From: Octopus vulgaris
Taxonomy: Eukaryota
Assembly (NCBI GenBank): GCA_951406725.2
Contig: OX597842.1
Span: 28,024,001-28,088,000 of the forward strand
Direction of reading: 5' to 3'
Length of the DNA: 64,000 nucleotides
The position numbers and the translations under genes are program-made. Below the pieces are notes generated by a model. The model was not told the DNA's origin. It was given only the letters and a program-made list of their open reading frames with translations, and did not search any database. Below are positions 2,701-56,037 of this stretch, in pieces. Numbering within the stretch: the stretch's first letter is position 1; each line of letters opens with the position of its first letter.

Positions 2701-3261
2701 AATGGGAAACTAACGAATTGTGGTTCTAATCGTTCTGCACATTTATCAGTGTGATAACTGAGGTATATTCGGCGATATTGTGGGGAGGAAATTTGTTGTT
2801 TGTGGACCATACAGCTCTTTTGGATTAAAATTCCTCTCGAATCAATTTAGTTTCGAAGGCAGCCCAAGCATCTGATTATGTAAATTAGGTTTTGGGGTGT
2901 GCAAGGGACGTTGGATTTGATTTTGAATATTTGCCCTTGTCTGAAATGGAATTTCGATCCTTCTAAAAGATTTTCTGCAAATAGGTGAACCACACTTTAC
3001 AACTCTTGCATCTGTTGTTCTAGGGAATAGTTTGGCATCGGTGAGAATCTTCAACAAGTAAGACTGAATAAAGAAGACTCATTTACCCCCAAATACAGAC
3101 CAAATAAATAAATATGAACCCATATTAAAAATAAAGGACTTACCCCATCTAATGTAGGGCATAAGCCAGAAAAAAAAATAGAGAGAACAAATAAAAATTT
3201 ACAGATTTACCTCCCCTTAACTGTAAAATATATGAATGAACAATTATCTCCACTTGCCGTA

Positions 3262-3936
3262 TATATTTTTTTTTCAACTCTCAGTTTGATAAGCAACTCG
3301 AAACCGGTCCTTCAATTATTTTGAAAGGACAAAACCTTATTTTGTACAAAATTATATATCTTTTTTTTCAACTCTCAGTTTGATAAGCAACTCGAAACCG
3401 GTCCTTCAATTATTTTGAAAGGACAAAACCTTATTTTGTACAAAATTATATATCTTTTTTTTCAACTCTCAGTTTGATAAGCAACTCGAAACCGGTCCTT
3501 CAATTATTTTGAAAGGACAAAACCTTATTTTGTACAAAATTATATATCTTTTTTTTTCAACTCTCAGTTTGATAAGCAACTCGAAACCGGTCCTTCAATT
3601 ATTTTGAAAGGACAAAACCTTATTTTTACAAAATTATAAATCTTTTTTTTTCAACTCTCAGTTTGATAAGCAACTCGAAACCGGTCCTTCAATTATTTTG
3701 AAAGGACAAAACCTTATTTTGTACAAAATTATATATCTTTTTTTTTCAACTCTCAGTTTGATAAGCAACTCGAAACCGGTCCTTCAATTATTTTGAAAGG
3801 ACAAAACCTTATTTTGTACAAAATTATATATCTTTTTCTTTCAACTCTCAGTTTGATAAGCAACTCGAAACCGGTCCTTCAATTATTTTGAAAGGACAAA
3901 ACCTTATTTTGTACAAAATTATATATCTTTTTTTTT
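3262..3936 (+). repeat. Tandem repeat, 7 copies of a 94-95 bp unit containing a hammerhead-like core
   Basis: Units start at about 3275, 3369, 3463, 3558, 3652, 3747 and 3842 and are near-identical. Each contains TTGATAAGCAACTCGAAACCGGTC. Confidence 0.95.
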
Positions 3937-4104
3937 CCATGACTCCAATATACCCCTAAATCCTGTGAAACAAATCTTCTGATTTTTTCATCATTTCTCT
4001 TTTTATATATATCCACCATGTGTTTCTCCACTAAAATATCTTCTACTCCATATATATATATATATATACACATATATACATAAATATATATGTGTACACA
4101 CACA

Positions 4105-8427: not shown

Positions 8428-9490
8428 GGATCTTTACCTTTCGACCGGCAGATTTAGAAAAATAATTTCTTGTAACTAAACACTTTCAAACTTCGTATTC
8501 TGGTAGAATGTGTCGTATAAAACATCTTTTACTCTTAGCGTTTTTGAGAAAAGTTTATATTTACAAAGTTATTTCGTGTTAAATTTGTCGTATTTCAGTA
8601 ATTTCAACCAATCAATGATGTGTATTCAGCTGAATAAAATTACTGCTAACCCATGCTAGCATGCAAAGCGGACGTTAAAGGACGATGATGATGATGTTTG
8701 TCAACAACAACTGGTGGTATATATTTCGTTTGTTGTTGTTATTTATGACATCGTTCATGCGTTTGTACTGGTTTTAGCTTTAAGGTGTTAGGGTTAGGGT
8801 TTTAGGTTAGGGCTAGGTTTTAGTGTCAGGGCTAAGGTTTTAGGGTTAGGGTTAGGGTTAGAGTTAAGGTTTTAGTGTTAGGGCTAGGGTTTTAGTGTCA
8901 GGGCTAAGGTTTTAGGGTTAGGGTTAGGGTTTTAGGGTTAGAGTTAAGGTTTTAGTGTTAGGGCTAGGGTTTTAGTGTCAGGGCTAAGGTTTTAGGGTTA
9001 GGGTTAGAGTTAAGGTTTTAGTGTTAGGGCTAGGGTTTTAGTGTCAGGGCTAAGGTGTTAGGGTTAGGGTTAAAAAAGTCTTACCGAAAATAGTAGCTGA
9101 AAAACAGGAAAAAACATAACTAAAACCAGTAGAAATGCACGAACGATTCTGGTGGTGCCATGAAGTAAACATGTTTCAGATAGACTCGTTTTTCATACAA
9201 ACGTAACTGAGATGAAATATGTCATAAATAACAGTGACAAACGAAATATACACCGCCAGAAGTTGTTGTTGTTGACAAACAACGGCAGTAATTTTATTCA
9301 GATGAATACACGCCATTGATTGGTTGATATTACCGAAATACGACAAATTTAACACGAAATATAAACTTTTCTCAAAAACGCTAAGAGTAAAAGATGTTTT
9401 ATACGACACATTCTACCAGAATACGAAGTTTGAAAGTGTTTAGTTCCAAAAAATTATTTTCTAAATCTGCCAGTCAAAAGGTAAAGATCC
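8428..9490. mobile_element. Foldback non-autonomous DNA transposon: ~300-350 bp imperfect TIRs, 8-bp TSD CCAAATCC, telomere-like core
   Basis: GGATCTTTACCTTT... / ...AAAAGGTAAAGATCC termini. CCAAATCC at 8420-8427 and 9491-9498. Superfamily (Merlin/MULE/hAT) not resolved. Confidence 0.9.
8783..9072 (+). repeat. Interstitial TTAGGG-variant repeat inside the foldback element
   Basis: TTAGGG, TTTTAGGG, TTAGAG and TCAGGG units in a higher-order arrangement. Confidence 0.9.
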
Positions 9491-9668: not shown

Positions 9669-9874
9669 TCAATTGAATAATGATGATAAACATTCGAGTG
9701 CATCGTAACATTCAGTTCTTACAAGAGCTGCTTTTAATATTCGAAGTGTACGTTTCTCTGGATCAGTACATTGATGCCATTTGTGCAGCATCTGGAAGCC
9801 TTGTTCCGCAACGTCAAGAGGATAGTCATGCCTGATGTTGTCCAGCTCATATTGTTGAATTTCTAATTCCCTTC
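9669..9874 (-). CDS. Last exon: death domain helices 2-6 and stop
   Basis: ttttgcag|GA AGG GAA... gives (G)RELEIQQYELDNIRHDYPLDVAEQGFQMLHKW..TLRILKAALVRTEC..LFN*. Phase 1 start. Confidence 0.85.
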
Positions 9875-12800: not shown

Positions 12801-14625
12801 ATGTTGTGTTAAACTGTCAGAGAATGGGAAATGGGATATTGTGATGTTCATGCCTTTCCACGTGACATTTGTAATGTAAAGGAGAGTGAAATGATTTCAA
12901 TTGAGAAACAAGATCAAGTTGAGTTTGAATTTTCTGTTGAGATTCTTTTTTTCTAATATAAATGAGTGTTTCATTAACTTACAATGCTGAGTTCAATCCA
13001 GCCATGAACACAATCAACAATGGGGCCTGTCTTCTATAGAGACAGGAAATATATGTTGACCTGGGACTAAAGAATTACAATAAATATAGAAAAACAGACT
13101 GGCCAGGGGAGAGATGACAACATGTCCCACACAATGCACACTCTCATTTTAAAAAGGTTACATTTGATAATGTGGTCCTCTTCACCCAAGAGAAAGAGCG
13201 ATGGCACATCTGGAACCCTTTCCCCTTAATTCTGCCAGATTAAGGCAGATATCTGCCGAAATAAACATCAACAACAACACTCTACTAGTAAACTTACTAA
13301 AAGTGTAAACAAGCAAAAACATTGTCATTAATTCACCTGTTTACTCTTAAACAACAATATTTTTGAGTCCCCTTTTACAAACGATAGTATTAACTCTACT
13401 GGACCTTCTAATTTATACATTTTACAACCGTGCTGACGTCTGTAGATATTTTATGAAATTTCAGTGATAGCTTTACTTTATAGCTAAACTTTCAATTGGA
13501 AATTAGGAATGGAACCGGTTCTCAGTCATTCAAACAAACAAAAGTTTAGCTGAAAGCAAAATTTATAGAAATTGGGTATTTTATACTCACCAAGTGGCTG
13601 CCATTTACCTGCCAACTTTTGGGACACCCAATGAAGATGGATCTGCTCTACCATTTCAGAATCTGAAATAAATATTTCCAAATTTTACACTTCATAGCAC
13701 AATTTCCCGATCTCTGTTAATGGTTTATATTTTATTATTGTAAGGCATTCCTATCATCAATGGACAACTTCTGACCACTATAGGCTTGGTCAACATTTTA
13801 TACTTCCTACAGTGGTCCTATATAATGGCTCAATATTTAGGTCCATAACAAAATAGACTGACCTTCCTAAGCCTCCTTTTACTATTAAGACATCCTACTT
13901 AATCTAACAACGTTGCAATCATCTTATTTAATGATCACATGTTAACACCTTTTATCTTTCTTCTCTCTTATATCCATGTTAAACCTATGACATGGCATTG
14001 TCCCCTCGCCACTGGACTTCACTTAATCAACATTCCCCTCATCTTTTGCTTAATTCTGATGTCAACCAAGCTGGTCATCAACGACCTTGACACAAACTCA
14101 TGTCACACCTGTTATCTTTGTCAAACGTTGCTGCTTTTAATCTTTAATTTTAAACTATGCAACTCACAGTTCACCAGAATTTCATCTGATTCAGGAAATA
14201 TTTAAGGACTCCTTAATGAAATGCTTTTCTTTCCTGATGAGCAATGATTAGTTCTACACAGGTGAAACAGAAAGTGATAGCAAGTATCCTAAAACACTGT
14301 ATACTTGCACAAAACATCTTTAACATGCAAATGTTCATACACAGATTATCGCAAAGGAAAAACATCTGAAATGGTACAAAAGAAGTGATATTTAAGAATA
14401 TATTATCAAGATGGTGATATAGATCAAACTTCAAGCACCAAATCTTGTTTTTGCTCAGAAGTTTTGACTTGGCAAATGCTTATTGCCCATCCTCGGTTTC
14501 TTCAATGACATCAATGCCTCTACTCTTATCGGACAATGAGATCGGACAACATCGATTGTTTTGTATCTTGCAACCAGTGTCATCTAAGTAAGAGAGATAG
14601 ATAGATAGATAGATAGATAGATTGT

Positions 14626-14679
<54 letters not shown>

Positions 14680-17600
14680 AATTGTCTCAGCAGCAGACCA
14701 AAGCTTCTTACTTGGACAAAGACATCATTTAATGGATGTAATGATAGATTTACTAACAGTGAAAAAAAAGACAGGGTGATCACACTTGTAAGCTTTCAAC
14801 TTAACCATCTTGTTCAACAAGAACATCAACAACAATAATCAGTAAACTTATTGAAAATGTACAACAAACAAACACTGTCATTAACTCACCTGTTTACCAT
14901 TAAACAACAAAATGTTTTTCTTCCTTCATTCAAAAGACAATATTAACTCTATTGTTTTTTTTTTCTAATTTAACCATTTTAGCAACAGAGCCAACACTGC
15001 TGGACATTTTATTAAATTTCTGTAATATCAATATTTTAAATACAATTCATGTTGTTACACGACTGGAAAGTACAGACGCTGCTACATGTAGATGCATAGA
15101 GAGAGAGAGAGAGAGAGATGAAGGAAGAAACAGGGAAAGAGAGAGAGACAACAATGAGATGAAAGAAAAGTGAATGCATCTCATTATGGGGAGAGAACAG
15201 CTTCAGGGTTTATATTTTATCTTTGTATTTTGGCCTCAACGTGAAAGACATTTTTCCTGTGTCTCATGTTTCCATATTTCTATAAAACCCCTTCATTGGA
15301 TATTCTTGCATTTGTAGGTAACGAATAGAATTACTTTTATCGCTAACCATTCAAAAGAAATGTAACAATGGAACCTGTTCTCAGTCATTCACACAAATAA
15401 TATATCTCAGGTGAAGGTAAAATTTATAGAAATCAATTACAGTTATTTTATACTCACCAACAGATTCTGCAACCGTCTTGACCGCTTTTTCTTCAGACTT
15501 TGGACATTCTGAAATAAGCATTTCAAAGTTTTATACTTCATAGTAAAATTTCTTTGTCTCTTTTAATAATCTATATTCCATTTTTGTAAGGCATTCATAT
15601 CATCAATAGTCAATTGGTGACCACTATGCTTTTGGTCAACACTTTCTAAGCTGTTACTATATAATAGTTCAATATTTAGAACCGCAGCAAAATAGGCAAA
15701 CCTTTCTAAATCTCATCTTTCTATTAAGACATCCTATATACTAATCTAACAATTCTGAAATTCTCTCACTTAGTTATCACTTCATAACACTCTTTTTCTC
15801 TTAGTTTTGTCTTTCTTTGTTATGTCTGTGCTGGTCATATGACATGCCATTGTCCTCTCATCTCGAACCTTCACTAACCAATATTCTTCTCATCTTCTAC
15901 TAAATTCCAGTCTCAACCAAACAGGTCTTCAAAGATCTGGCCACAAAGGCATGACACATTGCTTCAGGAAGGATAAACATACCCCAGCTCTCATTTTTAT
16001 ATGTTACTGTTGGTAATCTTTAATTTTAACTGCCCACATCACACTTCACCAGAATACCACCTGATTCAGGAAAGATCTGAAGATATTTCAATGTCATTCA
16101 TCCTCCTTAATAAGCAGCTTTTTCTTTTTCCAGGTGAGCAATGATTAGTTCTACACAGGTGGAGCAGAAAGTGATAACAGGTATCCTGAAACATTACATT
16201 TGTATAAAACCTCCTTAACTTAAAACTGTTTATCTACACATTATTGCAAAGGAGTTATACCTGAAATGGGACACTAGAATTCATTCTCAAGAATATATAA
16301 GACTCGCTAAGAGTCAGATCCTTAAACTCTCAGTTGAGATTTTGTCATTGAAATTCTTATATTACAAAGCTGACTGTGATGTTGTAGGAAGTACTGTTGT
16401 CCTTAATTATCAGTTTCCCAAGATACTTATAAATCATTAACCTCATATAAAAGCTGACAACTGAATATAAAAACTTGATGTTTACTGATGGGACCTTGGA
16501 AATATATTGATATTTCATTTATATTTCAGTAAAATGTATTAGTCTTATGTTGCAGACAGTACTCTTTTGATGTGGGACAGGTTTCCTACTTGGATAAAGA
16601 CAATATTCAGTGGGTGTAGTCATGGATATACTATCAAAGAGAAAAGACACCTGGGACATCTTTTATCATACGTCTGTCAGATTATGACAGATCTGGGTCG
16701 ATACAACATTATTCCATTCCATAATGTCATGTGACAAACAGACAGATCATCAAATCATATTCTTACCAACTCTCCTTTTGCTTTCTATACATGTTTTACA
16801 CTTGGGGAATCTTTCAGGTTGAGTTTTGCTACAATCTTCACATAAAACAGTATGTGCACAGGGTTGTAACTCCATGCTGGCTTCATTCACATCACAAAGC
16901 ATACATCTGTGGAAAAAACATAAAACACATCCCACCTATAACATTCATTTCTAACAAATATTACATGTTTGTTTTATGTTTACAGTACAGAATATTATGA
17001 AACACTAGACTGACCAGAGTGAGGTGCATGGCTAAGTTGTTAGGCTTTTGGACTCATAGAGTAAAATTGCGGTTTCAATTCCTGGACAAGGCGATGTGTA
17101 AAGTTCTTTAGCAAAACACTTCAGTCTAGGTTTGCCCTGCATACAAACCTGCCCCTTGTTATAGGTGAGTCCATGTTCATTGATCTACATCTTATCAACT
17201 TCAGATGTGTTCCTCCAAAACAATTTTATTTGCCTCAGTTGATTGGATCAAAACCCAAACGAGTTAGATTCACCTTCTACTGAGCTATGTGCATACTATT
17301 TAGCTTCTTATAAGGACAGGTGTGATAAATTGAGCTCTTCGTCATTCACCACCTGATACACACTTGAAGTTACATATTGTAGGTCCCTTAAATCATGACT
17401 CAATACCAGATGAAAAAGGGATGCAAACTGGTCTGAGGATATCCTCTTCCATGAACCATGACAGATTTAAATCGAGATACAAATTATTGTTTAAAAATAC
17501 CCACAGTTTATGCAATAAAGTTCACTATTTTTGATTCCTAAGTTAAAAGTACTGATTCCAATCTCATTTGTTAAACCTGGACACATTCTTTACTGTGCAA

Positions 17601-20600
17601 TGGTGTTTTTAGCATGGCTGGCTACATTTTCTTTCACAAAGACCTCTTTCATTACCTTGGAGGTGGTGCGATGGTCTATGCTTGCTCAAGCTTTTCAGAA
17701 ATTGCTTGTGAAGATTTAAACCAGTCACAAGAGGAATTTTTCTGCGACATAAAAGCACATCAACATTTACCATCCTCGAAACTTTTTAGAGCTGCATCTA
17801 TCAAAATGGTCACCTATGTTCTCATACTTGTGATTTCAATTACCCAATATTGATTAGGAAATCTTTCACTGGCCACAAAATGCAACCGATTTCCTTCATT
17901 TAATGTTAGATTCAAACTAATCCCAAGTAGTCCTCTCTCCCTTAAAAGGTAACAACACTTTCGATCTGCTATTTACCACTGCTCCTGAAATTATCAGCCT
18001 CAATAGTGATGAACCCTTAGGTGACTCTGATCATACTCCAATCTTGCAAAAATATTTCTAATGGATAGAAAGAAAAGCCACCATAACCTCCAAACTGCTT
18101 CGTTTTCCTGGAACTCCGACTGTACTGAGGTATAGTTCCCTGACTGGCTTCGACTTTACACTTCTGGAGATGTCAAGACTAACCTTCAGCACATCCATCC
18201 TTAATTCATGAATAAGTGTCGGTGCCATAGAAACGTTTTAGAAGCCTGAATATGTGAGAGACTGCCAGGAAATATCGATGAGATGCTGGACGTGATAAAA
18301 GAACAGGGGATAAAAGAAGAAGGGGCAACATGGTACCCTGCCATATTAAAGGAGTGACAAATGTACCGTTTTCACTGCTACTGAGATCAAATTCCATAAA
18401 ACCTGTTGAATTCTGCAATATCGCAATGCTAATTGAAGCATATGTGCAATTATGCTTCCTCTTGTCTTGGTGGTGTTATTCATCTGCTTCTCAAAGGGTG
18501 CACCCTTTTTCTACTGCACCAGCTTTTTGTCCTCTTCTAATTCACACTTAGCCCAGTTTAATGGAAAGTTGCCAGTATTCTTCCCCGTTCATAAAGGGAG
18601 TGACCAGACATCCCCTGTTGACTACCATCCAGTCAGTCTCACAGAATTAATGGATCTACAGGAAGACATTTTGGAACATCTGGAACCCTCATAAGCTTAT
18701 TCAAACTCCAACCATTTTGATTTATCCCTAACTGTTGCTGCATTGAATTTCTTCACAGATGGTGGTTCATGGGTGGATATTATCTCTATCAACTTCACCA
18801 AAGTCTTTAATTCCATGCCACAGTGATCAATTATGGCACAACTGTCTGGAATGGGTGCGAGGACTAAATTATATAACTGCTTAAAATACTTACATTCTCA
18901 GTTGAAAAGACAGAGTCACAACACTAAGCTAACATTCTGCACCCAACACAGAAGACCTACAAGGAACTACTCTTGGTTTTCTCTTGCTCCTTCTATGTAT
19001 CAGCTAAATACATGCCAACTATCTGCTATAGATCCTTTCTTCAATCTGACCTGGATACAATGCAGCAATGCACTGCTGATTGCAAACTCAAGCTGGCCAT
19101 AGAATGGTGCACCACTATACACTTTGGAATGGAAATTCCAAAATGTACCAACTCTCTCCAGAACAACAAACTTCAAAAGTCTGCAGGTGAACTTGACCGT
19201 GACATTAATGTCAACAATGATGTGTAATGCATGAACCACATTTCTAAAAATCATCAGAAATATTAAAGTATTGCTCAGTAAAACCTCTGCCCGTCAATTT
19301 GTTAAGTTATCAGTTTAAAATTATGCCTGGCTATCATACGTCTACACTTACAGTTTACATTTCCAATCTGGAATCCCCATCCTGTCCAGAATATCTATTC
19401 AGAGAAGAACAACAAGGCAAATACTCTCTCTTATTTACCATATCTTGAATATATTGCTTCTCTGGGTATTGACATCTTATTAGATGCTATATACCTTTGC
19501 TTCAATCTGATCTCCAAACCAGGCAAATACTCTCTGTTAGTCACCATATACTGAATGTATTGTTTCTCTGGGTATCAGCACACTAAAGTTTTGAAGTCTA
19601 GCAGCTAATCTGGTATAATCCCTTAGGTTTATACATAATCTTGCCAACAACAACTTTGGCAACATTTTTGAATTCAAAATCTCAGCCAGCAGCAGACATT
19701 CTTATGAAATTAAAATAAAAAACAGTGCAGCACCCATGACTTTACGAAATACTTTATCTCACTCAGAATTATTTAAGCACACAACAAACCACCTGAGTCA
19801 GCTGTTAGCTGTCAGCATACGGCATCCTCCAAAATATTCTTTTCTTACCGAGGATATATAGCCAGTACAAGGTGTTGATGTGGCTGCGTGTATGTTATTT
19901 ACAAGAGTTCATAAAGAGATGAAGAATAAATTCAAGACCTATATATTTACTACGGAAAAATATATTTTATTTACTGGTCGATGACGATACACAGAATTAA
20001 TATGTAGCATCTAGTTGAATGAAATAATCTATACAAGAAAGTTCAGAGATAGGAAATATAGAAAAATAGCCAAGTGGTGGCTTTCAGCCATGTGCGTAGA
20101 GAAACAGACGGACATAGCAATGACGTGAATGGCTCTAAGTCTAATTGACTCAGTAAACCACCGCCTATTACTTGTCAAGCTTCAAGCATATAGTTTCCAT
20201 CCGGATATTGTACGATGGGCTGGTGCCTTCCTCTCAGATCGCTCCTTCCAATTCCAAGTTAATGGTTCTGGTCCGACGTCTCCAGTGCGAGCAGTGGCAT
20301 GCCTCAAGGTTCAGTGCTTGGGCCGTTATTGTTCTTATTCAGAGAAGAACAACAAGGCAAATGCTCTCTCTTAGTTACCATATCTTGAATATATTGCTTC
20401 TCTGGGTATTGACATCTTATTAGATGCTATATACCTTTGCTTCAATCTGATCTCCAAACCAGGCAAATACTCTCTGTTAGTCACCATATACTGAATGTAT
20501 TGTTTCTCTGGGTATCAGCACACTAAAGTTTTGAAGTCTAGCAGCTAATCTGGTATAATCCCTTAGGTTTATACATAATCTTGCCAACAACAACTTTGGC

Positions 20601-22905
20601 AACATTTTTGAATTCAAAATCTCAGCCAGCAGCAGACATTCTTATAAAATTAAAATAAAAAACAGTGCAGCACCCATGACTTTACGAAATACTTTATCTC
20701 ACTCAGAATTATTTAAGCACACAACAAACCACCTGAGTCAGCTGTTAGCTGTCAGCATACGGCATCCTCCAAAATATTTGTCCTATGAAGAAAGGATATA
20801 TAGCCAGTACTTTAAGGTGTTGATGTGGCTGCGTGTATCTCATTTACACAAGTTCATAAAGAGATGAAGAATAACCTCTCGAAAGAGCTGTTCTTTACTC
20901 CTGCTCCAGAGCGTCGGCTACGGGGTCATGACGATAAAGAATTAATATGACGATTTCATCTCAATCGAAGGAGAGGAGCTTTCTCCGTCCGGAAAGTTGC
21001 GGAGATGGAACAAGCTGCCAGAAATAATGGTGAAGATGGTGGCTTTGTTCAAAGCCTTGACCTGTGGCCTGAACTCTTTAGATGAAACAGACGGACATAG
21101 CAATGACGTGAATGGCTCTAAGTCTAATCGACTAAGAAGCAAAGAGCAGGGTTAGCAAGCTTACATACACACATACATGCTTACATACATGCTACGTACG
21201 TATATACATAACTACGTACGTATATATCCATATATATATATATATATATATAAGAGAGAGACAAATACATATACCCGAAAACAACCACGCACACATATAT
21301 GTATATATATATACATACACATACATACTGTTAACTAAAATAGTATTAAGAATCATTAAAATTAAGATAATATTAATTGTTAATACAACGAAAGGGGTCG
21401 GAAGGGTAATTCGTAATATACAAAAAAGAGGGGCCTAAAAGGGTAAAAGACGTAAGGGTTAATAAAAGGCAAAGGTTGGAAAATATTGAGATAAAATTTC
21501 TAAGAAGGGTATAAACTCAAAACACAGATTTACCATAACCAGTGTAAAGAAGATGTAGGTTATTTGCATAAGATACATAATTAAAAATTACACCACATAT
21601 TCCGTAAACAATCAGAAGACTAGGAAACCGTCCAGATATCAACACTTGTAAATTTTATCTGAATATTTTCCAACAGTAATCAGACACAAGAACAGGAGTA
21701 AAGAGGGAGGACAATTTATTAAATGAACCCCTGGATATTGAGCCCAGGAGTTGAACTTGGAACACAAACGGATCAAAGTAAGGGGATGATTCTGCATTTA
21801 GCCCAAGGCCAGAGGAAAGAGGAAAATTTCAAGAGAAGGTGGGGGGGTGAGGTGTTTTACATGGAATGAAAGGAAGAAGGGAGAGGATTTGAACCTGTAA
21901 CGTTGAGGTAACGAAGGATGAGATGAAGTAAAGAATCCAGTCAGGTAACAACAACAACAACAATAATTATGATGATTAATTAATGAAGTTAGATTACAGT
22001 GTCATTAGAGTGAGAGAGAGAGAGAGAGGGGTGAAGCATGACGACCCATGGTGGGATTATGACATGAATGACTCGAAACAAGAAAACAAAGATTAAAGAA
22101 ACAGATTTGGATAATCCAAATCCATTGGGGACTTACTTTTGAACTGCCAGATGGAGAGGGGTGTCACCCTTGAGGTTCACCTTATTGACATCGATGCCTT
22201 TCTGTTTCAGGAGAAAATCAACAACTTCCTTGTATCCATGAGTAGAGGCAAGATGGAGAGGGGTGGAACCTTGCTTGGTCACAGCATTAACATCCGTGTC
22301 TTTCTGTTGCAGGAGAAGTTCAACAACGTCCTTGCTTCCATAGACCGAGGCAAAATGGAGACCTGTCCAACGATCTTTCGTCTCAGCTTTAACATCCGTG
22401 TCTTTCTGTTGCAGGAGAAGTTCAACAACGTCCTTGCTTCTACAGCAACAGGCAAAATGGAGAGCTGTCCAGCCCAATATATTTTTCTGATTAACCTAAA
22501 AAAGATAAACAATAAAGACATTAAAGATGGTGTTTATTGGGGAAAGAAGGAAAAAAATGAAAAATGTCAGAAAAACAGAATCAGATTAATTTAAACAGGT
22601 GGAATGAAGGTGGGGGGAAAATAAATGAGATTTATAATGTATCTATACACACACACATTTGTGTATGCATATATATATACACTCTCGCACATACATATAT
22701 ACATAAATACCATATATACATACGTGTTTTATATCTTCACGGATCATTTGTTTATGCATTTTTGTGTATATATGCGTTTATGTGTGTGTATATTTGTGTA
22801 TGTATGTACAGGTCTGTGTGAGCTGAAGAAAAGTTTTTAATTAAAAAAATATAAATATAAACTGTTTCATATACATAAAACACAAACCAACATACATATC
22901 ATTAT

Positions 22906-22939
<34 letters not shown>

Positions 22940-25900
22940 TCGCTGACCTGTAAATTGTTATTTTCTTTGCTATTTAACAGGACTTTGACTACATCTTCAT
23001 AGTTATTCGCCACAGCCAGATGTAGAGGTGTGTCGCCCCATGAGTCCTGCTTATTAACATTTGCTCCACTGGAGACTAAGAAGGCCACAACATCAGTTTC
23101 GTGGCTGAAAGGAAGAAAAACAAACATAAAACATCACATTCACTTAATAATTACATTAAATATACACTCGTGTTCCATAAAAACCTAAATGCCTCGTGTG
23201 TGTGTATATATATATATATAAAACCTATGTATGTAGTTCCTACAGCCTCGTGTGTGTATATATATATATATATGTGCAAATATGTATGTATGTAAAGGCA
23301 AATATGTATTACCTACACAAATGTGCCCCAGGCGAATGTTTCCTTGTAACTTCTAGAAAAATGGATGTTTTTCAATGAAATTTCTTTCACAAATATCATT
23401 CAGATGGCAAATATTCCAATTATATCGGAATTTGTTGTGAGAAAAAACTTTTCGGTGGGTGGAGAGAGAAATTTAGGAAAGTTCACCCGAGTCGGCTTTC
23501 TTTCCAAAAAAATAGATATTTTCAAATGAAATTTTCAATAAAACCGTTTCAGATGGTGAAGATTTCGATTATATCGGAATTTAATATGAAGAAAATTATA
23601 AAAATTGGTGGATTCGCACAGATATACACTGACACAAAACAGAAAATAAAAAGATGAACTTTGGGAAAATAACCGTGATGTGTGTCAGTATGTATGTGTG
23701 CGAAACCATCAAATTTTTAAAGTTTTTTCATGTTAAATTCCGATATAATCCTAATCTACACCATTTGAAAGGTGTATTAGGTGGAAAAATATTAGGTGGA
23801 AAAATATTAGGTGGAAAAAATCAACAGCATAATATAGTGAAATAGCAACATAATAACAATAACAACAATAATAATACAGTACAATGCAAAACATTATAGA
23901 TCAGCAAATACATATAAAATGAAAAATATTGATTTACATCAGCAAAATCCAGAAGTGTACATGCATATAAAGGCATACAAGTCAGACTTTTGACGGTGAT
24001 ATATATTAAGTGGTACGTTTAGAAATGATTTAAGATTGAAAGCTCAATAGGATTGACTGGAACATTTGAATTTCAATTGTCTCCGTTACGGTTGGTTTAT
24101 TAAGATACACTTACATACATTCACACGTATATGTGCGCTTATACATATATACATAGATAAACAAAAAAACAGAAAATACAAGCTTACATACACACATACA
24201 TACATAACTACGTACGTATAGATCCATATATATATATATATATATATATAAACAAATACATATACCCGAAAACAACCACGCACACATATATGTATATATA
24301 TACATACACATACATACTGTTAACTAAAATAGTATTAAGAATCATTAAAATTAAGATAATATTAATTGTTAATACAACGAAAGGGGTCGGAAGGGTAATT
24401 CGTAATATACAAAAAAGAGGGGCCTAAAAGGGTAGAAAAAGGTAAGGGTTAGTAAAAGGCAAAGGTTGGGAAATATTGAGATAAAATTTATAAGAAGGGT
24501 ATAAACTCAAAACCCAGATTTACCATAACCAGTGTAAAGAAGATGTAGGTTATTTGCATAAGATACATAATTAAAAATTACACCACATATTCCGTAAACA
24601 ATCAGAAGACTAGGAAACCGTCCAGATATCAACACTTGTAAATTTTATCTGAATATTTTCCAACAGTAATCAGACACAAGAACAGGAGTAAAGAGGGAGG
24701 ACAATCTATTAAATGAACCTCTGGATATTACTGGTACAGATTTTGACCCCAGCAGTTGAACTTGGAACACAAACGGATCAAAGTAAGGGGATGATTCTGC
24801 ATTTAGCCCAGGGCCAGAGGAAAGAGGAAATTTCAAGAGAAGGTGGGGGGTGAGGTGTTTTACATGGAATGAAAGGAAGAAGGGAGAGGATTTGAACCTG
24901 TAACGTTGAGGTAACGAAGGATGAGATGAAGTAAAGAATCCAGTCAGGTAACAACAACAACAACAACAATAATTATGATGATTAATTAATGAAGTTAGAT
25001 TACAGTGTCATTAGAGTGGAGAGAGAGAGAGAGAGAGAGAGGTGAAGCATGACGACCCATGGTGGGATTATGACATGAATGACTCGAAACAAGAAAACAA
25101 AGATTAAAGAAACAGATTTGGATAATCCAAATCCATTGGGGACTTACTTTTGAACTGCCAGATGGAGAGGGGTGTCACCCTTGAGGTTCACCTTATTGAC
25201 ATCCATGCCTTTCTGTTTCAGGAGAAAATCAACAACTTCCGTGCGTCCATGAGAAGAGGCAAGATGTAGAGGGGTGTAACCATGGTTGGTCACAGCATTA
25301 ACATCGATGCCATTCTGTTGCAGGAGAAGTTCAACAACGTCCTGAGGCAAGATGCTTCCATTCCACAGCTTAACATCTTTGAGGCAAGATGGAGACTGTC
25401 CAACCATCTTCCATCACAGCTTAACATCCGTGTCTTTATGTTGCAGGAGAAGTTCAACAACGTCCTTGCTTCCAGCGACAGGCAAAATGGAGAGCTGTCC
25501 AGCCCAATTTATTTTTCTGATTAACCTAAAAAAGATAAACAATAAAGACATTAAAGATGGTGTTTATTGGGGAAAGAAGGAAAAAAATGAAAAATGTCAG
25601 AGAAACAGAATCAGATTAATTTAAACAGGTGGAATGAAGGTGGGGGAAAATAAATGAGATTTATAATGTATCTATACACACACACATATGTGTATGCATA
25701 TATATATATATACACTCTCGCACATACATATATACATAAATACCTATATATACATACGTGTTTTATATCTTCACGGATCATTTGTTTATGCATTTTTGTG
25801 TATATATGCGTTTATGTGTGTGTATATTTGTGTATGTATGTACAGGTCTGTGTGAGCTGAAGAAAAGTTTTTAATTAAAAAAATATAAATATAAACTGTT

Positions 25901-26998
25901 TCATATACATAAAACACAAACCAACATACATATCATTATACACACACACACACATATATATATATATTCGCTGACCTGTAAATTGTTATTTTCTTTGCTA
26001 TTTAACAGGACTTTGACTACATCTTCATAGTTATTCATCACAGCCCAATGTAGAGGTGTGTAGCCCCCTGAGTTCTGCTTATTAACATTTGCTCCACTGG
26101 AGACTAAGAAGGCCACAGAATCCGTTCGGTGGCTGAAAGGAAGAAAAACAAACATAAAACATCACATTCACTTAATAATTACATTAAATATACACTCGTG
26201 TTCCATTAAATGCATAAAAACCTATGTATACTACAGCCTCGTGTGTGTATATATATATATATATGTGCAAATATGTATTATGTAAAGGCAAACCTACACA
26301 AATGTGCCCCAGGCGAATGTTTCCTTGTAACTTCTAGAAAAATGGATGTTTTTCAATGAAATTTCTTTCACAAATATCCTTCAGATGGCAAATATTCCAA
26401 TTATATCGGAATTTGTTGTGAGAAAAACCTTTTCGGTGGGTGGAGAGAGAAATTTAGGAAAGTTCACCCGAGTCGGCTTTCTTTCCAAAAAAATAGATAT
26501 TTTCAAATGAAATTTTCAATAAAACCGTTTCAGATGGTGAAGATTTCGATTATATCGGAATTTAATATGAAGAAAATTATAAAAATTGGTGGATTCGCAC
26601 AGATATACACTGACACAAAACAGAAAATAAAAAGATGAACTTTGGGAAAATAACCGTGATGTGTGTCAGTATGTATGTGTGCGAAACCATCAAATTTTTA
26701 AAGTTTTTTCATGTTAAATTCCGATATAATCCTAATCTACACCATTTGAAAGGGATTTGTAGAAATTTTCACAGAAACAAAATATCCACTTTTCTGAAAG
26801 TTATAGAAAAACAAAACGGATTTGGGTGAATTTTGAGAAAGTCAACTCCTCAACGTTTGAAAATTTGTTTTTACAACAATTTCCGATATAATTGGAATCT
26901 TCATCATCTGAAGCATTTTTGTCAAAGAAATTTCATTAAAAAATATCCATTTGTCTCAAAGTTATAAGGAAACAAATTCGTCGTGGGGCCCATATGGA

Positions 26999-27876: not shown

Positions 27877-30800
27877 TTATAAGTTAAACTCCAGTGTTTG
27901 ACTCGAGCAAAAAAAATTGTGCAATAGGTGTAAAATAAAATATAAAAAGAATAAGTAAAAAAAAAAATACGTTGGCGAACGAGGGGCGGTGGAGACGACT
28001 CGGAAAATTCACACGATCAATCTCACAGGATCCGAAAACTACATGTTGTTTTACACCTGTTACACTTTTTGTTTTCATTTTTGGGACCGGTTGTCGAGTG
28101 GGGTTACCGGATCGTGTGAATCATCCGAGTCTGCACCCAACCCACCCGCCCTGTCACAAAACTTGAACAAAAGTAGAGTACCGGGTGTAAAATAATGTGT
28201 AAAAAACGAAAATGAAGAACAAAAAATTCGCCGACGAACGGGGAAGTGGTGAGATTTGAATTTTCCGAGTCGTCTCCCCACCTCCCGTTCGCCATATTTT
28301 TTTTTCATATTCGTTTACTACATGTTGTTTCACACCTATTGCACTATTTTTTCCTTTTTTCTTTGCTTGGGCCAAACACTAGATTTTAACCTAGTGTTTC
28401 CCTCCTCTGTCTTCTCCATCTGAAGGAGCCATGTCCCTCTTCTAATGCAAGACACCTTTCTCTCCAGCAATATTAGCTCCCCCACCTCACCACCTCAACC
28501 AGTCGAGAGGTCTTTGTCTTGCAATTAACTGGTGACCTCACTGGTTCGGATGGCATGTAAAAGGCATCCAGTACACTCTGCAAAGTGGTTGGTGTTAGGA
28601 AGGTCGTCCAGCCATAGAAACCAAACCTAAGCAGACAGTAGCGTTTGGTGTGATCTTCTGACTTGTCTGTTCCTATCAAACCCTCCTACCCATGCCAGCA
28701 TGGAAAAGGAACATTCGATGACAATGATGGTGTGTGTGTGTTTGTGTGTTTGTGCAAAATTCTGGAACAATTTGTGACTGCAGAAGCTATAGAAACTAAT
28801 AAGAACTTCAAAACATGTTTTATTGTCCAGAGATGACCTTATGAAGCACAATTCAAAATATAATAGATCTCAAAATGTGTTGAGTGAGTTGCAGATGGAG
28901 GTGAGAAATAATTTCTGTAAGAAATTTACAGATTATTTACTGTCAAAACAAGCTAGAGAATCTTTCTTGTTGCTTTAGATCTCAAATAACATTTTCTTTG
29001 GAGAAAAATTGATCGATCTCCCCATAATCAATATGAAGAGAAGACACTGAATCAGAATGGGTCAATCTTAAGAACTGTTGGCTCTCAAAGAATATCTCCA
29101 TACTTTGTTATATATATACTGATATGTATGCATGTATGTATGTATAGGATGACTCACGAGTCATCTTCGTAGTCATAAAGCGAGACAGATGAGTGACAAC
29201 CTGGCCACTGGTGGTGGTGTAACGCACCATACTAATCATATCTGTTTTGACAAAAAATAACGAAAAAGATTTTTGTGATTCAATGAAGAGGATTCATGGA
29301 GAAAATGAGAAAAAGATGTTATTTGGTTACTACTATCATGTTGTTATCGTGTCACACTGCCTCTATTATGGTATCTTTGGATATTCAAATAGTCTGGAAT
29401 TGCAAAAAATTTCAAAACAAAAGCAGATCTGAAGATTTTAATTAATTCAAGCCTTACCTTTCCACAGCATAATACAATGCCGTCTGACCTTCTTCGTCAC
29501 TCATGTCTATATTGGCTCCAGATTCTATCAAGAAGGCTATTAGACTTGTGCTGCCCTGTTCACAAGCTGCCATTAAGAAAGTTTTACTGTCTGAACTTCT
29601 TTGGTTGACCTGAAGAGAAGAAAGAGAAGATATATAAAATATATCAAAGGAGAGAGAGAGAGAGAGAGAGAGGAGGGAAGAATAGAGAGAGAGAGAAAGA
29701 AGAGAAGAGAGAGTAAAGAAGATGCTGGAGTGAAAGAAAGGGATATGAAAGATGAAGAAAGAAAGATACACACACACACACACACACACACCAGTGTGCA
29801 ACATGAAATAAAATGTCTTGTTGAAGAATACAACACACAGCCCAGACTGGGAATCAAACTCACTATCTCCTGATTGTGAACCTGTTGCCCTAACCATTGA
29901 GTCATGCGCCTTCATATACATATACACACATACACACACACATGTATGTATGTAAGGGTGGAGGAACTCTTGAGAGTCAACAGCCTTCCAATAAATGTCT
30001 TAAGGCTGTATCATGCATGGGAACATAGAAATAATTGGACTGAATACCCGATCGCGCAGTTAAACCATTGGGAGTGAAGGACTCCTAGCCTTTGTTTGGG
30101 CATCCTTCTAGGCGAAGGTAACTCAGGTAACTGGGATAACTCCGGCATAAAACCTGCAGCTCAGTGGTTGCCGATGATGTTGACTTGTTCTTCTTTCCGG
30201 ATTATGACTGCTGTTGCTTAGTGAGTGGGATTGACTCAGTGCACAGCCTTTCCTCACTTTAAAAAAATCTTCTTGCACAGGCATTGCATGATAACAACAT
30301 TGATTAAGCTTCGTACAATGGCCATACTCGATAACGAGGGAGCAGCCACCATATATATGTATGTATGTATAGTTCCAGTCATTCAAGTCCCACCACTGGT
30401 CTAAGTAGAGTAAAGCTACAACTTCAAATTCTCACAAACATTTAACTTAGACATTGTTACCTAATTAGATTACTATATCCATACTTTGTTATATATATGC
30501 TGATATGTATACATGTATGTATGTATAGGATGACTCACGCGTCATCTTCATAGTCATAAAGCGAGACAGATGAGTGACAACCTGGCCACTGGTGGTGGTG
30601 TAACACACCATACTAATCATATCTGTCGGGCATGTGGAAGAGAGTGTAATTCGGCAGGAGGACTTAAACGACATGCAAAGGTACATGAAGCCCAGTTACA
30701 ACTACAGCCGGCTATTACCAGTAAAGGTCTTAGTTGCCAATTTTGTACAAGACATTGTAGATCTTTAGCTGGGCTAAAAAGTCACATTCGATCACAGCAT

Positions 30801-33661
30801 CAATAACAGTTAAGCTCCGTGCAATGGCCATACTCGATAACGAGGGGGTTAGCCATCATGTATAGGTTATGTCTCCAATCTGGTATGCTCATTTTGTCCA
30901 GAATGCCAATCTACTGGAAGCTGTCCATAGATGTACAACCATGCAATTAGCCTCACTCAATCACTTATCATTTCTTAAATGTATTGCTTCTCCATGCATC
31001 AACACAGAATTTTGTCATTTCTAGCAACTCACTTGATCCCACAAGATTATCCCTCATCTTCCAATAACAACTTTGACCACTTCTGCAATTTAATATCTTT
31101 ACCACTCTGAGACATGCTTATAAAGTAAAAAAAAACACCCATCCCAGTTTCCATGATATCAGAAACAATATTTTTATGCTCAGAATTGTCAAGGCATGGA
31201 ATAAACTATCTACATTGGTTGTTAGCTGTATCCTTCAAAAACACCACACTTTCTGTAATTCAGAAACACAGGTTCCTATGCACCCTTTCCTTTTTGTGGT
31301 TCTTTTACTGCTCCCTTTTCTGTCTTTCAGTGTTCTATCCCGTGAACGATGGCATGCACTTTAGATGGTCATTAGTGTCTTTCTTTACATGACTTGTGCT
31401 TCCTGTCCTTTCATAGAAGTGGACAGAGCAATATCGAAGGAAATCAGTACAAATATACCATTTCATGGTAGATGGAAGAGTCTTTCTTATGAAACATAAG
31501 ATGTCTGTCTTAGGGAAAAAAAATCAGTTGAGAAAATCTACCAGTTTATTACTGGTATGTATGATATCAATTATGAATTGAAGAGAACACTGACAAGATT
31601 TCAAACTTGGTACCTTACAGGAGACACACAGGTAAATAAGAGAAACCATCTACACTAACCAACAGCAGAGATTAGACCATAAGATGGTGTATAAAGTAAT
31701 TGGACAGGTGAAGAGCTATAAAGGGTCAAAACCTCGGAAATAATTGTGTGGATTCTAAATATATCAGACTGGATTTTAGTTTAGTATTCCCTGGTAAAGC
31801 TCATGAAATTCTACACTGTGTTATCACTGATGCCTGGCATAGTAGCACTTTCATTTAATGCTATAATGATGAAGGAGATTTAAATGATGGTGAGAGAAGA
31901 AGAGGATGTTTGAAATGAAGCATGGATCTTCAGATGTCATATGTCTGGCGAAACAGCAACATGAGATCAGCTTGGAAAAGAATGAAAGCAAATCTACAGG
32001 AAAGGTGTAGAGCACAGGTAAATCAAGGTGAAAAAGGCTTAGAAAGACTGTTTAGTTCATGCATAAGCTCAAGGAAAAGATTGAAAATCCTTTTACGTTA
32101 ATCACTGAATCTATTACAAAGTAATTATTTGTGATTAGATATCTGCGACAACTTTGGAACGACACCAACCACAACTAAATATGTGCAACTATGGAAAAGG
32201 AGGAGACAGAAATGAAAAGAAACAATGGAGAAAATAAGAAATATTCTGAAAGTAGGGATCAGAATTTTGAGCCTAAATGAGGCAGCAGCAGTGTCAGGGC
32301 TTACATTAGTTTGTAGCCATACGATATGTAAGAAGGTGTGAGTGGTTCATACACAACTGTATTACACCTGTACAAAAAAACACTATTGACTTCACCTTGA
32401 GGAAAACACCTACCCTCACTAAACTGGCAGACATTCACCCACCATTGAAATACATGTATGATGGTCATCAAGAAATTAAAGGATGTTTTTTCTGCATTTC
32501 ACCATTTGTCAGCTGGCTTCCCTCCCAAATTAAAAGCCACATTTTCTGGTCTCTTACCTAGAGTATCTCTATAGATTTTACAGAATCATTCCACCCACCA
32601 CTCCCTAACCATGATGGTTCTATACCAGTGCTTCTTAAACTTTTCAATTATGGCCCTTTTTTATTTACTAAGAGTTTTTCAATGCCCCTTTTCTTGCTAT
32701 GATTCAATATCTCTGATTTTTAATGTTCTCACAGGTCAGATTAATTTACCTTTGGGTCCTAGTCTTGACATGGGTGACTACTTACCACAGCACCACTCCA
32801 CAATAAATGAACATTTGATGCATCACCACTTCACTTTAGTTTCTGATCCAAACTCAACTACACATTGAGTTTTATATATTTGTACGACCATAGCCGCCTT
32901 GGCTCCCTGGTCCTTATAAAATTCTTTGCAATCCCTACCCAAGGGTAGCATTACTCTCTTAGAGAAGCCCTGTTTTATAATTCTTGCTGATAGTGTCCTA
33001 TCTGCTGACTACCAGCCAGTCATTCTAACTTCCAATATTTCAATTATGAAGTAAAAAGTCATAAACAACCATCATCTTTGTCCCTTTGGGTATCTTTCTC
33101 TATTCAATGAGCCCCAGTACAGTTCCATAAAGCCGGTTCAAGCAGGGGTCTGATTCCTATGTGACTCCCCAGTGTTTTGGTTATGTTTGACAACTTCTGC
33201 AAAAGAAATACTGTAGCCCTTGACGTCGGTAAAACCTTCAACTGTGTATGGCAAGAGAATTTCTTGACAAAGTCATCATTTATCTATTGGGTCCATCTTT
33301 CCCCCATCTCTTGGACAGAATATTTCCTGCCAGAATACTCCATTGTAGTGTGTAAGGATGGGTTTCTCTCTCACTCACATTCCATCAATTCTGGCATGCC
33401 TCATTGTCTGGTTGAATATTTATAAAAAGTGACAATGATGAGGATTAGAGGAAAGAGGTAAAGAAAGAAATGAAATATTATGGACAAATATATCTGGTTA
33501 TTTAGGAACATTTAATATTGTGTATAAAATAATAAACAAACATTTAACATTGAAGAAGCAATATAAAGTAAACTTACTTTATCATGATTTTCTTTGATAA
33601 ATCGTTTCACATCTTTAAAGTCCCCATTCCGAATCTTGCTTATAATTTTATCTACATCCAT
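9669..33661 (-). CDS. Spliced gene: MIB2-like ankyrin repeats + C3HC4 RING + death domain (406 aa if one duplicated ankyrin cassette is skipped)
   Basis: Ten exons with GT-AG boundaries and compatible phases: 33661-33578, 29609-29458, 26132-25976, 25525-25148 (damaged), 23104-22948, 22495-22137, 16906-16767, 15508-15458, 13662-13591, 9874-9669. 84+152+157+359+140+51+72+206 = 1221 nt. Confidence 0.8.
11725..12600 (+). mobile_element. RTE LINE 3' fragment with (GAT)n tail
   Basis: MLHGSETWAMTAEDMRRLDRNE.. with stops; family 3' end ggcattaggaagggcatccagc..ccatgccagcatgg..gatgatgat. Confidence 0.85.
13591..13662 (-). CDS. Exon 9: death domain N-terminus
   Basis: tatttcag|AT TCT...CTT G|gtgagt, 72 nt, phase 1-1. 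(D)SEMVEQIHLHWVSQKLAGKWQPL(G) supplies the W-x-x-L-G death-domain motif. Confidence 0.85.
15458..15508 (-). CDS. Exon 8: 17-codon linker between RING and death domain
   Basis: tatttcag|AA TGT...GTT G|gtgagt, 51 nt, phase 1-1, open: (E)CPKSEEKAVKTVAESV. Confidence 0.65.
16767..16906 (-). CDS. Exon 7: C3HC4 (MIB/IAP-type) RING finger
   Basis: ttccacag|A TGT...GTT G|gtaag. CMLC-x10-PCAHTVLCEDC..RFPKCKTCI. Phase 2-1. Confidence 0.85.
17500..19830 (+). mobile_element. Heavily degraded CR1-type LINE
   Basis: Remnant motifs VDYHPVSLT, INFTKVFNSMP, GRPTRNYSW (GVPQGS-like), PIWNPH, QRRTTR and the 3' end seen at 6895-7330. Confidence 0.55.
19395..21127. repeat. Recent local duplication (19395-19928 vs 20336-20874; 20101-20145 vs 21083-21127)
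   Basis: ~535 bp near-identical direct repeat starting tattcagagaagaacaacaaggcaa, plus a 45-bp block repeated ~980 bp apart. Confidence 0.9.
22137..22495 (-). CDS. Exon 6: ~3.5 ankyrin repeats (34-aa units)
   Basis: tttttag|GTT AAT...CAA AA|gtaagt, 359 nt. GWTALHFAC, WTGLHFAS, GSTPLHLAS and GDTPLHLAV motifs. Confidence 0.9.
22948..23104 (-). CDS. Exon 5: ankyrin repeat exon (cassette copy 2)
   Basis: ctttcag|C CAC...CAG|gtcagc, 157 nt. HETDVVAFLVSSGANVNKQDSWGDTPLHLAVANNYEDVVKVLL. Confidence 0.88.
25148..25525 (-). pseudogene. Exon 4: frameshifted/scrambled duplicate of exon 6 (or assembly-damaged)
   Basis: Same splice sites as exon 6 but 378 nt (should be 3n+2). A 2-nt deletion after GCC TGT CGC gives an early TGA; the middle is rearranged; the 3' half is intact ankyrin. 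Confidence 0.7.
25976..26132 (-). CDS. Exon 3: ankyrin repeat exon (cassette copy 1)
   Basis: 157 nt, phase 2-0. HRTDSVAFLVSSGANVNKQNSGGYTPLHWAVMNNYEDVVKVLL. Confidence 0.85.
26300..26997. mobile_element. MITE with long imperfect TIRs (truncated duplicate at about 23320-23772)
   Basis: gccccaggcgaatgtttccttgtaactt..attccaattatatcggaa vs ttccgatataattggaat..aagttataaggaaacaaattcgtcgtggggc. Confidence 0.75.
27529..27652. promoter_or_regulatory. Cluster of E2F, RFX X-box and YY1-like motifs in intron 2
   Basis: TTGGCGGGAAAA 27529-27540; GTTGTCATAGCAAC 27560-27573; GTTGTTAAGGGCAAC 27595-27609; TTTTACCGCCAAAA 27619-27632; ATGGCGG 27646-27652. Confidence 0.5.
27883..28390. mobile_element. Foldback/MITE-like inverted-repeat element
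   Basis: gttaaa..agtgtttg..tgcaataggtgt..gagacgactcggaaaattc vs gaattttccgagtcgtctc..acacctattgca..caaacact..tttaac. Confidence 0.75.
29458..29609 (-). CDS. Exon 2: ankyrin repeats resembling the first MIB2 repeats
   Basis: ctcttcag|GTC...GAA AG|gtaag, 152 nt. VNQRSSDSKTFLMAACEQG..IAFLIESGANIDMSDEEGQTALYYAVE. Confidence 0.88.
30530..30860 (+). mobile_element. 3' end of an RTE-like LINE encoding two C2H2-like fingers
   Basis: CRACGRECNSAGGLKRHAKVH and CQFCTRHCRSLAGLKSHIRSQH*. The 3' motif caatggccatactcgataacgaggg recurs at about 30316. Confidence 0.55.
33578..33661 (-). CDS. First coding exon (N-cap ankyrin-like helix pair)
   Basis: caaaag|AC ATG GAT GTA...GAT AAA|gtaagt. MDVDKIISKIRNGDFKDVKRFIKENHDK; phase 0 matches exon 2. 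Confidence 0.75.
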
Positions 33662-55571: not shown

Positions 55572-56037
55572 CATACACATACATGTACATACACACACAT
55601 CTACATACACATACATATACATCCGTACGCACACCCTATTACATACATACATCCACACAGAGGTATACAGGCATCTACACACATACACATACATACACAT
55701 ATATATACATATACCCCTGCGCGCCTACACGGACCCCTTGTACCTTGGATACCAATTCCCGGATTTTTGCACCTACGGATTACTTTTACCAGTCGTCTGG
55801 ACCTACGGATTACCTGCTACCTTTTTTCCGGAGTACTGCTACTATCGTGATTGAAAATCATTATTTAATCTGTCCGTTGACTCTCTTAACTCTTTCCTAA
55901 TTTTTTTCTACTTTTTTCTACTTTGTTCTATTGTTTTCAAACTATCTTCCCCTTTTGCTTTTTTTATCTTCCTTTTGTCTCTCCTTTTTTCTGTATCGCC
56001 ACCACCCACATTTACCTGTTTGCCACCACTTCTCATC

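Follow-up and report, generated by a model that had tools for sequence, protein, structure and literature searches.

A candidate natural library of ankyrin binding surfaces in a diversified family of Octopus ankyrin-RING-death-domain genes

Roughly 25 or more Octopus genes, located on one chromosome, encode ankyrin repeats together with a RING and a death domain, and comparison of their sequences shows that codons of the ankyrin binding face are far more diverse than the introns, a diversity that selection likely maintains and gene conversion likely reshuffles. The reading we prefer (probability about 0.6) is that the family forms a repertoire, with selection-kept, conversion-reshuffled codons on the concave face, which recognises foreign proteins in the cytoplasm. 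By analogy with known recognition systems, it would likely serve as a natural library of binders against foreign proteins inside cells. To our knowledge, the recognition of intracellular pathogens in cephalopods is largely an open question; a tandem cluster in which the hypervariable codons are defined offers a direct handle on it, through population typing and infection transcriptomes, and the ankyrin stacks could be used as small stable binders for finding ligands. We found no description of an Octopus ankyrin-RING-death-domain family in the literature searched; in the available text of two cephalopod white-body papers (PMC11252417, PMC6522055), ankyrin is named for unrelated genes only.

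The starting point is a gene with duplicated ankyrin exons on the minus strand of the window, i.e., the 64,000-nt stretch of Octopus vulgaris DNA analysed here. All its exons are on that strand. Exon 1 (33578..33661), located by tblastn with Octopus family proteins, carries the ATG start and the N-terminal capping helices and ends at a GT donor in phase 0; exon 2 (29458..29609) specifies ankyrin repeat 1 and the first half of repeat 2. Two copies of an exon 3-exon 4 cassette follow, recognised by self-BLAST with their flanking introns and 93% alike over 2652 columns. The upstream copy (24176..26753) contains exon 3a (25976..26132; 157 nt), which covers the end of repeat 2 and repeat 3 with the hypervariable codons, and the frameshifted exon 4a (25148..25525; 378 nt). 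The downstream copy (21173..23772) contains the open exons 3b (22948..23104; 157 nt) and 4b (22137..22495; 359 nt), the latter built of 102-nt (34-aa) ankyrin units with a half repeat last. Compared with full-length paralogues, the next intron (16907..21172) is without the linker and capping ankyrin exons. Further downstream are the RING (zf-C3HC4_3) exon (16767..16906), a 51-nt linker exon of symmetric phase 1 (15458..15508), a 72-nt exon for the first part of the death domain (13591..13662), and the final coding exon with death domain and stop (9669..9874). Ankyrin, RING and death exons share one reading frame, which agrees with the coupling of the ankyrin exons to RING and death-domain effectors proposed in a first-pass annotation of this DNA.

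The same annotation had put this gene forward as a candidate receptor, which was not supported: as assembled, it is a poor candidate, with a frameshift in exon 4a, no capping exons, and Phe in place of a RING Cys. The damage in exon 4a consists of gaps of 2, 1 and 1 nt plus, near 25391-25343, an insertion copied from local sequence, leaving the exon out of frame and with stops, although its 3′ 65 codons are intact in their own frame. The missing linker and capping ankyrin part amounts to about 140 aa, and three other genes show the same loss. The Phe occupies the seventh zinc ligand, so that the eight-ligand C3HC4 set is incomplete; all eight ligands are kept in frame in 5 of 10 RING exons of this type. 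With all exons spliced, the frame stops at codon 154; only skipping of exon 4a and one exon 3 opens a frame, of 406 aa, whose predicted product is an uncapped ankyrin stack with a seven-ligand RING. Its sequence thus probably identifies a decaying or reduced family member. Exon 4a and one other copy have small gaps near repeat positions 3 and 13-14.

Realignment bore out the reported counts for exon 3: 3a and 3b, both bounded by AG/GT, differ at 12 of 157 nt, with seven replacements (R/E, S/V, N/D, G/W, Y/D, W/L, M/A) and one synonymous codon. The adjacent intron 3 is indeed nearly identical between the cassette copies (2 substitutions in 445 aligned nt and four gaps), and the remaining introns of the 2.6-kb duplicated unit show 3/621 and 15/918 differences. 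For the intact 65 codons of exon 4, the peptides and the single synonymous change quoted earlier stand, but they include only 6 of the 11 replacements; the other five lie at repeat positions 17 (at the scar edge), 26a, 27, 28 and 28. The claim that the pair differs almost only at positions randomised in designed ankyrin repeat libraries (DARPins) is correct as to bias and overstated as to degree. In exons 3 and 4 together, changes occur at 7 of the 17 classic DARPin positions (33, 2, 3, 5, 13, 14) and at 11 of the other 100 (Fisher p = 0.005), but the former make up 7 of 18 replacements, or 9 of 18 when positions 1 and 10 are counted too. The pair is not an unusually fast duplicate, its 12 exon-3 differences comparing with a family median of 11. 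For 10 of these 12, both states are present in other family copies, so the differences are neither chance nor error, the latter being the objection that the annotation itself had named; the sharing likewise implies that gene conversion has shuffled them.

In all, we found 30 exon-3 copies, and 25 of the 30 cassettes are open. The cassette is a phase-symmetric, frame-preserving two-exon ankyrin module, in which exon 4 has 1 to 13 internal repeats among the 30 cassettes, the differences being between paralogues. Four genes, including that in the window, have a doubled cassette. The junction in the window is unlike that of the other three, which may or may not share one; a single origin for all four is rejected. 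Each gene mapped has one RING and one death domain, and most germ-line copies are complete in the one assembly used. All 18 relatives found in a search covering lengths 399-1271 are from Octopus. The structure model of a full-length relative (pLDDT 83) consists of an ankyrin solenoid, a RING, a disordered linker and a death domain. DARPins are the top PDB matches by sequence and by fold; the linker-RING part gave generic ankyrins only, with MIB1 ANK absent, among the best 60 of 179 PDB matches.

Selection on exon 3 was assessed in 19 near-identical cassettes with site models in our own code, not PAML (NEB, fixed relative branch lengths). Nucleotide diversity is 0.0146 in introns (19 copies, 640 masked columns) and 0.006 at four-fold sites. 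In the same copies, pN is 0.271 at the six DARPin positions chosen a priori versus 0.046 elsewhere, and sites with at least three bases number 8/156 in exon 3 versus 1/640 in the intron (p = 1e-5). The M2a-M1a and M8-M8a comparisons both yielded a 2dL of 85, with omega 16-17 (17.4 at the a priori positions), and the selected sites are ankyrin positions 1, 3, 5, 10 and 13, plus 16 and 19. The signal persists with intron-only trees, with star trees and with double-nucleotide changes allowed (2dL 66-157); a neutral null with free recombination reached at most 11.4 in 14 runs. Exon 4 units are hot at the same positions, with omega 6.3 (46 unique units) and 5.3 (42 unique units), or 7.5 and 4.3 at a priori positions, and 47 units carry 43 distinct surface signatures. 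As internal controls, exon 2 (2dL 3.4) showed no significant positive selection in the site models, and the RING gave 2.6. The diversifying selection first suspected from one exon pair is, hence, a family-wide property of the binding face. It covers the hairpin and inner helix, as delimited in the structure model, and selected sites also lie in helix 2 (positions 19 and 22) and in the linker (position 28). The constraint on the framework is weaker than had been implied at the same time, since in subfamily A omega still reaches 1.6 outside the six DARPin positions.

Mosaic ancestry of the copies is evident from the introns, where 34 of 78 site pairs fail the four-gamete test (clonal null: mean 0.04, maximum 0.30 in 300 runs) and neighbouring sites are more compatible (p = 0.0005). 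Exon and intron divergence show no positive correlation (rho -0.17). Of the "targeted conversion" suggested earlier, conversion is established by the four-gamete pattern and the shared variants, but nothing shows targeting. We infer that conversion homogenises introns and framework, that selection preserves variants at positions 1, 2, 3, 5, 10, 13 and 14 (and 16, 17 and 19) and brings them into new combinations, and that unequal crossing-over, both within exon 4 and in introns, would have changed repeat number. Introns kept 98.5% identical by conversion while selection holds single codons apart would make a clean animal case.

By analogy, each ankyrin stack would bind a different cytosolic ligand, a pathogen or parasite protein, the RING, where intact, would ubiquitinate it, and the death domain may recruit death-fold partners, leading to cell death or NF-kB-type signalling. 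The available sections of one study describe highly conserved ANK repeats with repeat-number variation and inter-repeat recombination in the Podospora NLRs Pa_3_8560 and Pa_2_8180, and, for fungal NLR ANK arrays, positively selected sites in the concave face's inner helix and hairpin (PMC4986451). The Octopus family shares variable repeat number (albeit between paralogues, not alleles), recombination, concave-face selection and linked effector domains. Unlike the fungal NLRs, it is an intron-rich tandem animal cluster in which a two-exon cassette is also duplicated, with N-terminal ankyrins followed by RING and death domain; no NACHT or NB-ARC domain was detected in the family proteins scanned or among the domains of the 18 relatives. 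One DARPin library randomises positions 2, 3, 5, 10, 13 and 14, and earlier libraries differed at 10, 26 and 33, according to the sections available (PMC3308923). The natural hot sites are 1, 2, 3, 5, 10, 13 and 14; in contrast with the libraries, exon 4 units have 34 aa, positions 1, 16 and 17 vary, and 33 hardly does. Evolution thus varies almost the same set of positions as engineers do in their libraries, 1, 16 and 17 being natural additions.

Other ubiquitin-ligase families, such as TRIM5/finTRIM and the nematode and plant F-box/MATH-BTB proteins, have also expanded with positively selected substrate-binding surfaces, but these have other recognition folds and are not known to carry a death domain or to shuffle repeat units. 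Tentatively, and with somewhat less confidence than in the preferred reading, octopuses may have evolved a natural DARPin library of cytosolic ankyrin-RING-death-domain receptors, diversified by conversion, unit shuffling and cassette duplication, that detect pathogen proteins and pass the signal on through co-diversifying death domains; if true, these receptors would fill the NLR- or TRIM-like role known elsewhere.

Family records are automatically named after the E3 ligases Mind bomb MIB1/MIB2. Both Mind bomb and the Octopus family have a zf-C3HC4_3 RING behind the ankyrin stack, and the first match among the Atlas neighbours is mib1-like (0.97), with plant XBAT33-like clusters at 0.96. Mind bomb proteins have the order Mib/Herc2-ZZ-Mib/Herc2, REP, ankyrin stack and two or three RINGs, and no known death domain. 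The Octopus family differs in its single RING, added death domain, multigene character and hypervariability; Mib/Herc2, ZZ and REP were absent in a Pfam scan of five family proteins and in the precomputed domains of the 18 relatives, and exon 1 begins with ATG.

Mind bomb proteins act on self substrates, and the same selection and conversion could have shaped surfaces that read self or conspecific ligands, in allorecognition, gamete or germ-line conflict, or development with paralogue-specific partners. Sequence data cannot name the ligand. The death exon itself is diversifying (2dL 54; pi 0.121 versus 0.011 in the intron; pN 0.143, pS 0.066), an outcome not favoured by a fixed downstream adaptor and one that fits matched pairs among family members. 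On the other hand, host-parasite conflict typically shows itself in omega values of 5-17, growth in copy number, and birth-and-death that leaves broken copies, and Pfam gave no sign of a surface domain in the family proteins scanned. [quoted passage not shown] On balance, we regard self ligands as unlikely, yet as the strongest competitor of foreign-protein recognition.

The doubled cassette might instead be an alternative-splicing device joining exon 3a or 3b to 4b for two specificities, given that both skip paths open the 406-aa frame and that the cassette is phase-symmetric. This is very improbable: all four exons have identical splice-site contexts, joining 3a to 4b requires skipping two exons, and in the two other doubled genes whose cassettes are both open, serial reading would yield a longer stack. 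Dscam-like arrays consist of mutually exclusive exons, seen in transcripts, that are not readable in series; intact Octopus cassettes are frame-compatible in series.

Very improbable, too, is a targeted mutator that generates the diversity, possibly also somatically, through hypermutation, editing-templated conversion or breaks programmed at the variable codons. The extreme contrast between adjacent codons, the multi-base codon changes and the small gaps in exon 4a and another copy would suit it. However, an A-to-I or DGR-like bias is rejected (A>G in only 6 of 45 exon 3 variants, and no other bias), most amino acids are specified by one or two codons, with changes at first and second codon positions, and variants are common to several copies and to O. 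sinensis, which marks them as old germ-line variants. VLR-like receptors arise by cell-to-cell rearrangement from an incomplete germ-line gene.

Selection might also be imitated by neutral decay, by noise from conversion or by errors in the assembly. Recombination inflates site models, the gene in the window and four further cassettes are broken, single-base gaps in repeat arrays may in some cases be consensus errors, and some copies could be uncollapsed alleles. This reading is largely refuted by the tree-free contrasts (pN, multi-base sites), by a recombination null that stays far below the observed 2dL, and by variation at these same positions both in independent repeat types and in O. sinensis records. 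It is at the hot positions, too, that the O. sinensis records depart from the copies closest to them. Turnover is not uniformly fast, since at two isolated loci O. vulgaris and O. sinensis hardly differ at hot sites (0 and 1 differences).

The gene in the window was mapped from Octopus family proteins as ten exons, running from 33661 to 9669; the proteins closest to it come from Octopus and combine ankyrins with a zf-C3HC4_3 RING and a death domain. Self-comparison revealed a 2.6-kb tandem duplicate (24176-26753 and 21173-23772), each copy of which carries, on the minus strand, one 157-nt exon and one larger ankyrin exon: exons 3a (25976-26132) and 4a (25148-25525, 378 nt) upstream, and exons 3b (22948-23104) and 4b (22137-22495) downstream. 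We have termed exon 3 and exon 4 with their flanking introns a cassette. Both ends of the cassette are in phase 2, and the exon 4/exon 3 join would restore a normal repeat, so that its doubling lengthens the ankyrin stack.

The first-pass annotation had counted 12 nt differences between exons 3a and 3b, amounting to seven replacements and one synonymous codon, and our recount bears this out. Intron 3 differs between the two copies by 2 substitutions in 445 nt, and the introns of the 2.6-kb unit, summed, by 20 in 1984 nt. In their intact 3′ part, exons 4a and 4b differ at 14 nt (11 replacements and one synonymous codon). Changes in the pair affect 7 of 17 classic DARPin positions versus 11 of 100 other positions (p=0.005). 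The 12 differences between 3a and 3b are close to the family median of 11; at 10 of these 12 sites, both alternative states are present among other family copies, and nt 1-30 of exon 3a are identical to a copy in another gene. The exon 4 nearest to 4a is 4b, the final 53 nt being identical. Since 4a is closest to 4b while the exon-3 variants are held in paralogues, the pair is likely to have formed by local duplication, with patches from paralogues acquired afterwards.

As assembled, exon 4a is out of frame, and splicing through all exons of the gene leads to a stop at codon 154; whichever exon 3 is left out together with 4a, the reading frame stays open for 406 codons. The lesion includes two gaps in short runs and a scar (25343-25428) that contains 14 nt copied from a stretch lying 51 nt upstream, including a 1-nt gap shared with that source, plus a 12-nt repeat; the scar resembles an insertion made by locally templated repair more than a simple read error. 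The RING has a Phe at the seventh ligand, and capping-repeat and linker exons (~140 aa) were not found by protein mapping, which a 12-codon exon could escape. This member of the family has probably been damaged or reduced. Linker and capping exons are missing from four genes, the other three lying at 27.91-27.94, 28.20-28.22 and 28.23-28.25 Mb on C29 (the contig that carries most copies); the RING is damaged in three of the four and intact in one. A 51-nt symmetric exon (15458-15508 in the window; 29.439 Mb on C29) was detected in 0-4 copies per gene.

The family exons occur mainly on C29, with a peak density at 27.6-30.2 Mb. Searches of the same genome, in which all exon counts are lower bounds, yielded 31 exon 3 matches (30 used, one distant match omitted), 24 exon 2 matches, 10 matches for the window's RING type, and 56 death exon candidates, 40 of which were scored. 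Exon 4 follows all 30 exon-3 copies, its internal 102-nt units numbering from 1 to 13, and 25 of the 30 cassettes are open. Doubled cassettes occur in four genes: that of the window and those at 28.274/28.278, 28.480/28.486 and 29.215/29.219 Mb on C29. Exon 2, the linker-RING block and the death domain each come in two types, variously combined among genes (loci L051-L074 and L096-L105), suggesting whole-block exchange between genes. Each of the 18 relatives found by the linker-RING-death part (lengths 399-1271) belongs to O. vulgaris, O. sinensis or O. bimaculoides, and family members bear generic names in databases. Distant death exons of the family also occur on contigs C31, C10, C8 and C27, so that the wider family is larger than the 40 death exons scored.

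Position numbers used here are those of the ankyrin consensus. In the 19 closest cassettes, diversity is 0.0146 in introns (640 columns, gaps and simple repeats masked) and 0.006 at four-fold sites, while pN reaches 0.271 at the six DARPin binding-face positions chosen a priori (33, 2, 3, 5, 13 and 14) versus 0.046 at the remaining 46 codons. In exon 3, six amino acids occur at position 3 and seven, plus one stop, at position 13; position 2 does not vary. PMC3308923 places 2, 3, 5, 10, 13 and 14 on one exposed face and describes a library in which, in contrast to earlier ones, 26 and 33 were kept constant.

Codon site models, run with our own code, gave for exon 3 an M2a-M1a 2dL of 85 (19 cassettes) or 128 (all 30) and an M8-M8a 2dL of 85, with an omega of 16-17; under neutral simulation with free recombination among four-codon blocks, 2dL did not exceed 11.4 (14 runs). 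Sites 3, 5, 10, 13 and 19 were selected in all six tree/model settings, 1 and 16 in four, and 14 in three. For exon 4, 92 units were kept after dropping seven with a missing or garbled codon and all beyond a stop; duplicates among the units were collapsed. Omega is 6.3 in subfamily A (at 1, 2, 3, 5, 10, 13, 14, 16, 17 and 28) and 5.3 in subfamily B (at 1, 3, 5 and 13). As counter-evidence, omega in subfamily A is still 1.6 outside the six a-priori positions, and part of the selected sites lie on helix 2. The structure predicted for a full-length member from O. sinensis (pLDDT 83) has a continuous ankyrin solenoid, a RING, a disordered linker and a death domain; going by the helix limits in this model, the hairpin contains positions 1-5, helix 1 positions 10 and 13, and helix 2 positions 19 and 22. 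The top PDB matches are DARPins and ankyrins.

The cassettes are mosaics. Among intron-only site pairs, 34 of 78 are incompatible, exceeding all 300 clonal simulations; compatibility is higher between adjacent intron sites than after shuffling, and exon-3 and intron divergence do not rise together (rho -0.17). Editing or a mutator as the source of variation is not indicated by any base-change bias. When five O. sinensis records are set against the copies closest to them, nine exon-3 residues differ (positions 1, 5, 10, 17 and 22), and two isolated loci are near-unchanged in this comparison.

The hypervariable ankyrin exons are a real feature; their function is putative. Selection, conversion and unequal crossing-over together would produce a repertoire of binding faces, a reading to which we assign a probability of about 0.9. 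By analogy, it is reasonably plausible that the ankyrin stacks bind foreign cytosolic proteins, with the RING and death domain as outputs. Fungal NLR ankyrin arrays (PMC4986451) and hnwd genes (PMC2873952) have a similar way of working, but by its domains the Octopus family belongs neither to the NLRs nor to Mind bomb. No description of this family was found in a literature search with subscription journals mostly outside its coverage.

Outside exons 3 and 4, the death exon tests positive for selection (2dL 54; 17 unique sequences, two gapped copies and one distant copy excluded), the linker exon gives a borderline 2dL of 6.0 (six sequences), and the signal is not significant in exon 2 type I (13 unique sequences) or the RING (eight unique). 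Diversity of the death exon (9669-9874 in the window; loci L106-L124) is ~11 times that of the upstream intron; its selected sites lie around helix 3 and at the end of helix 4, and its nearest solved domains are, weakly, those of Fas and RIPK1.

The window also contains plus-strand retroelement-like open frames at 55855-58886 and 48231-49505, presumably Penelope-type remnants, the latter with a weak GIY-YIG match below cut-off. Directly downstream of the gene's last exon lies an array of 20-nt units from TTAGGG-like repeats (8770-9073). A 95-nt tandem array of 98% identity lies at 3260-3937. A local duplication with 940-nt spacing occupies 19396-20153 and 20336-21136, and an old one (69%) surrounds two small linker exons at 13467-14403 and 15325-16298.
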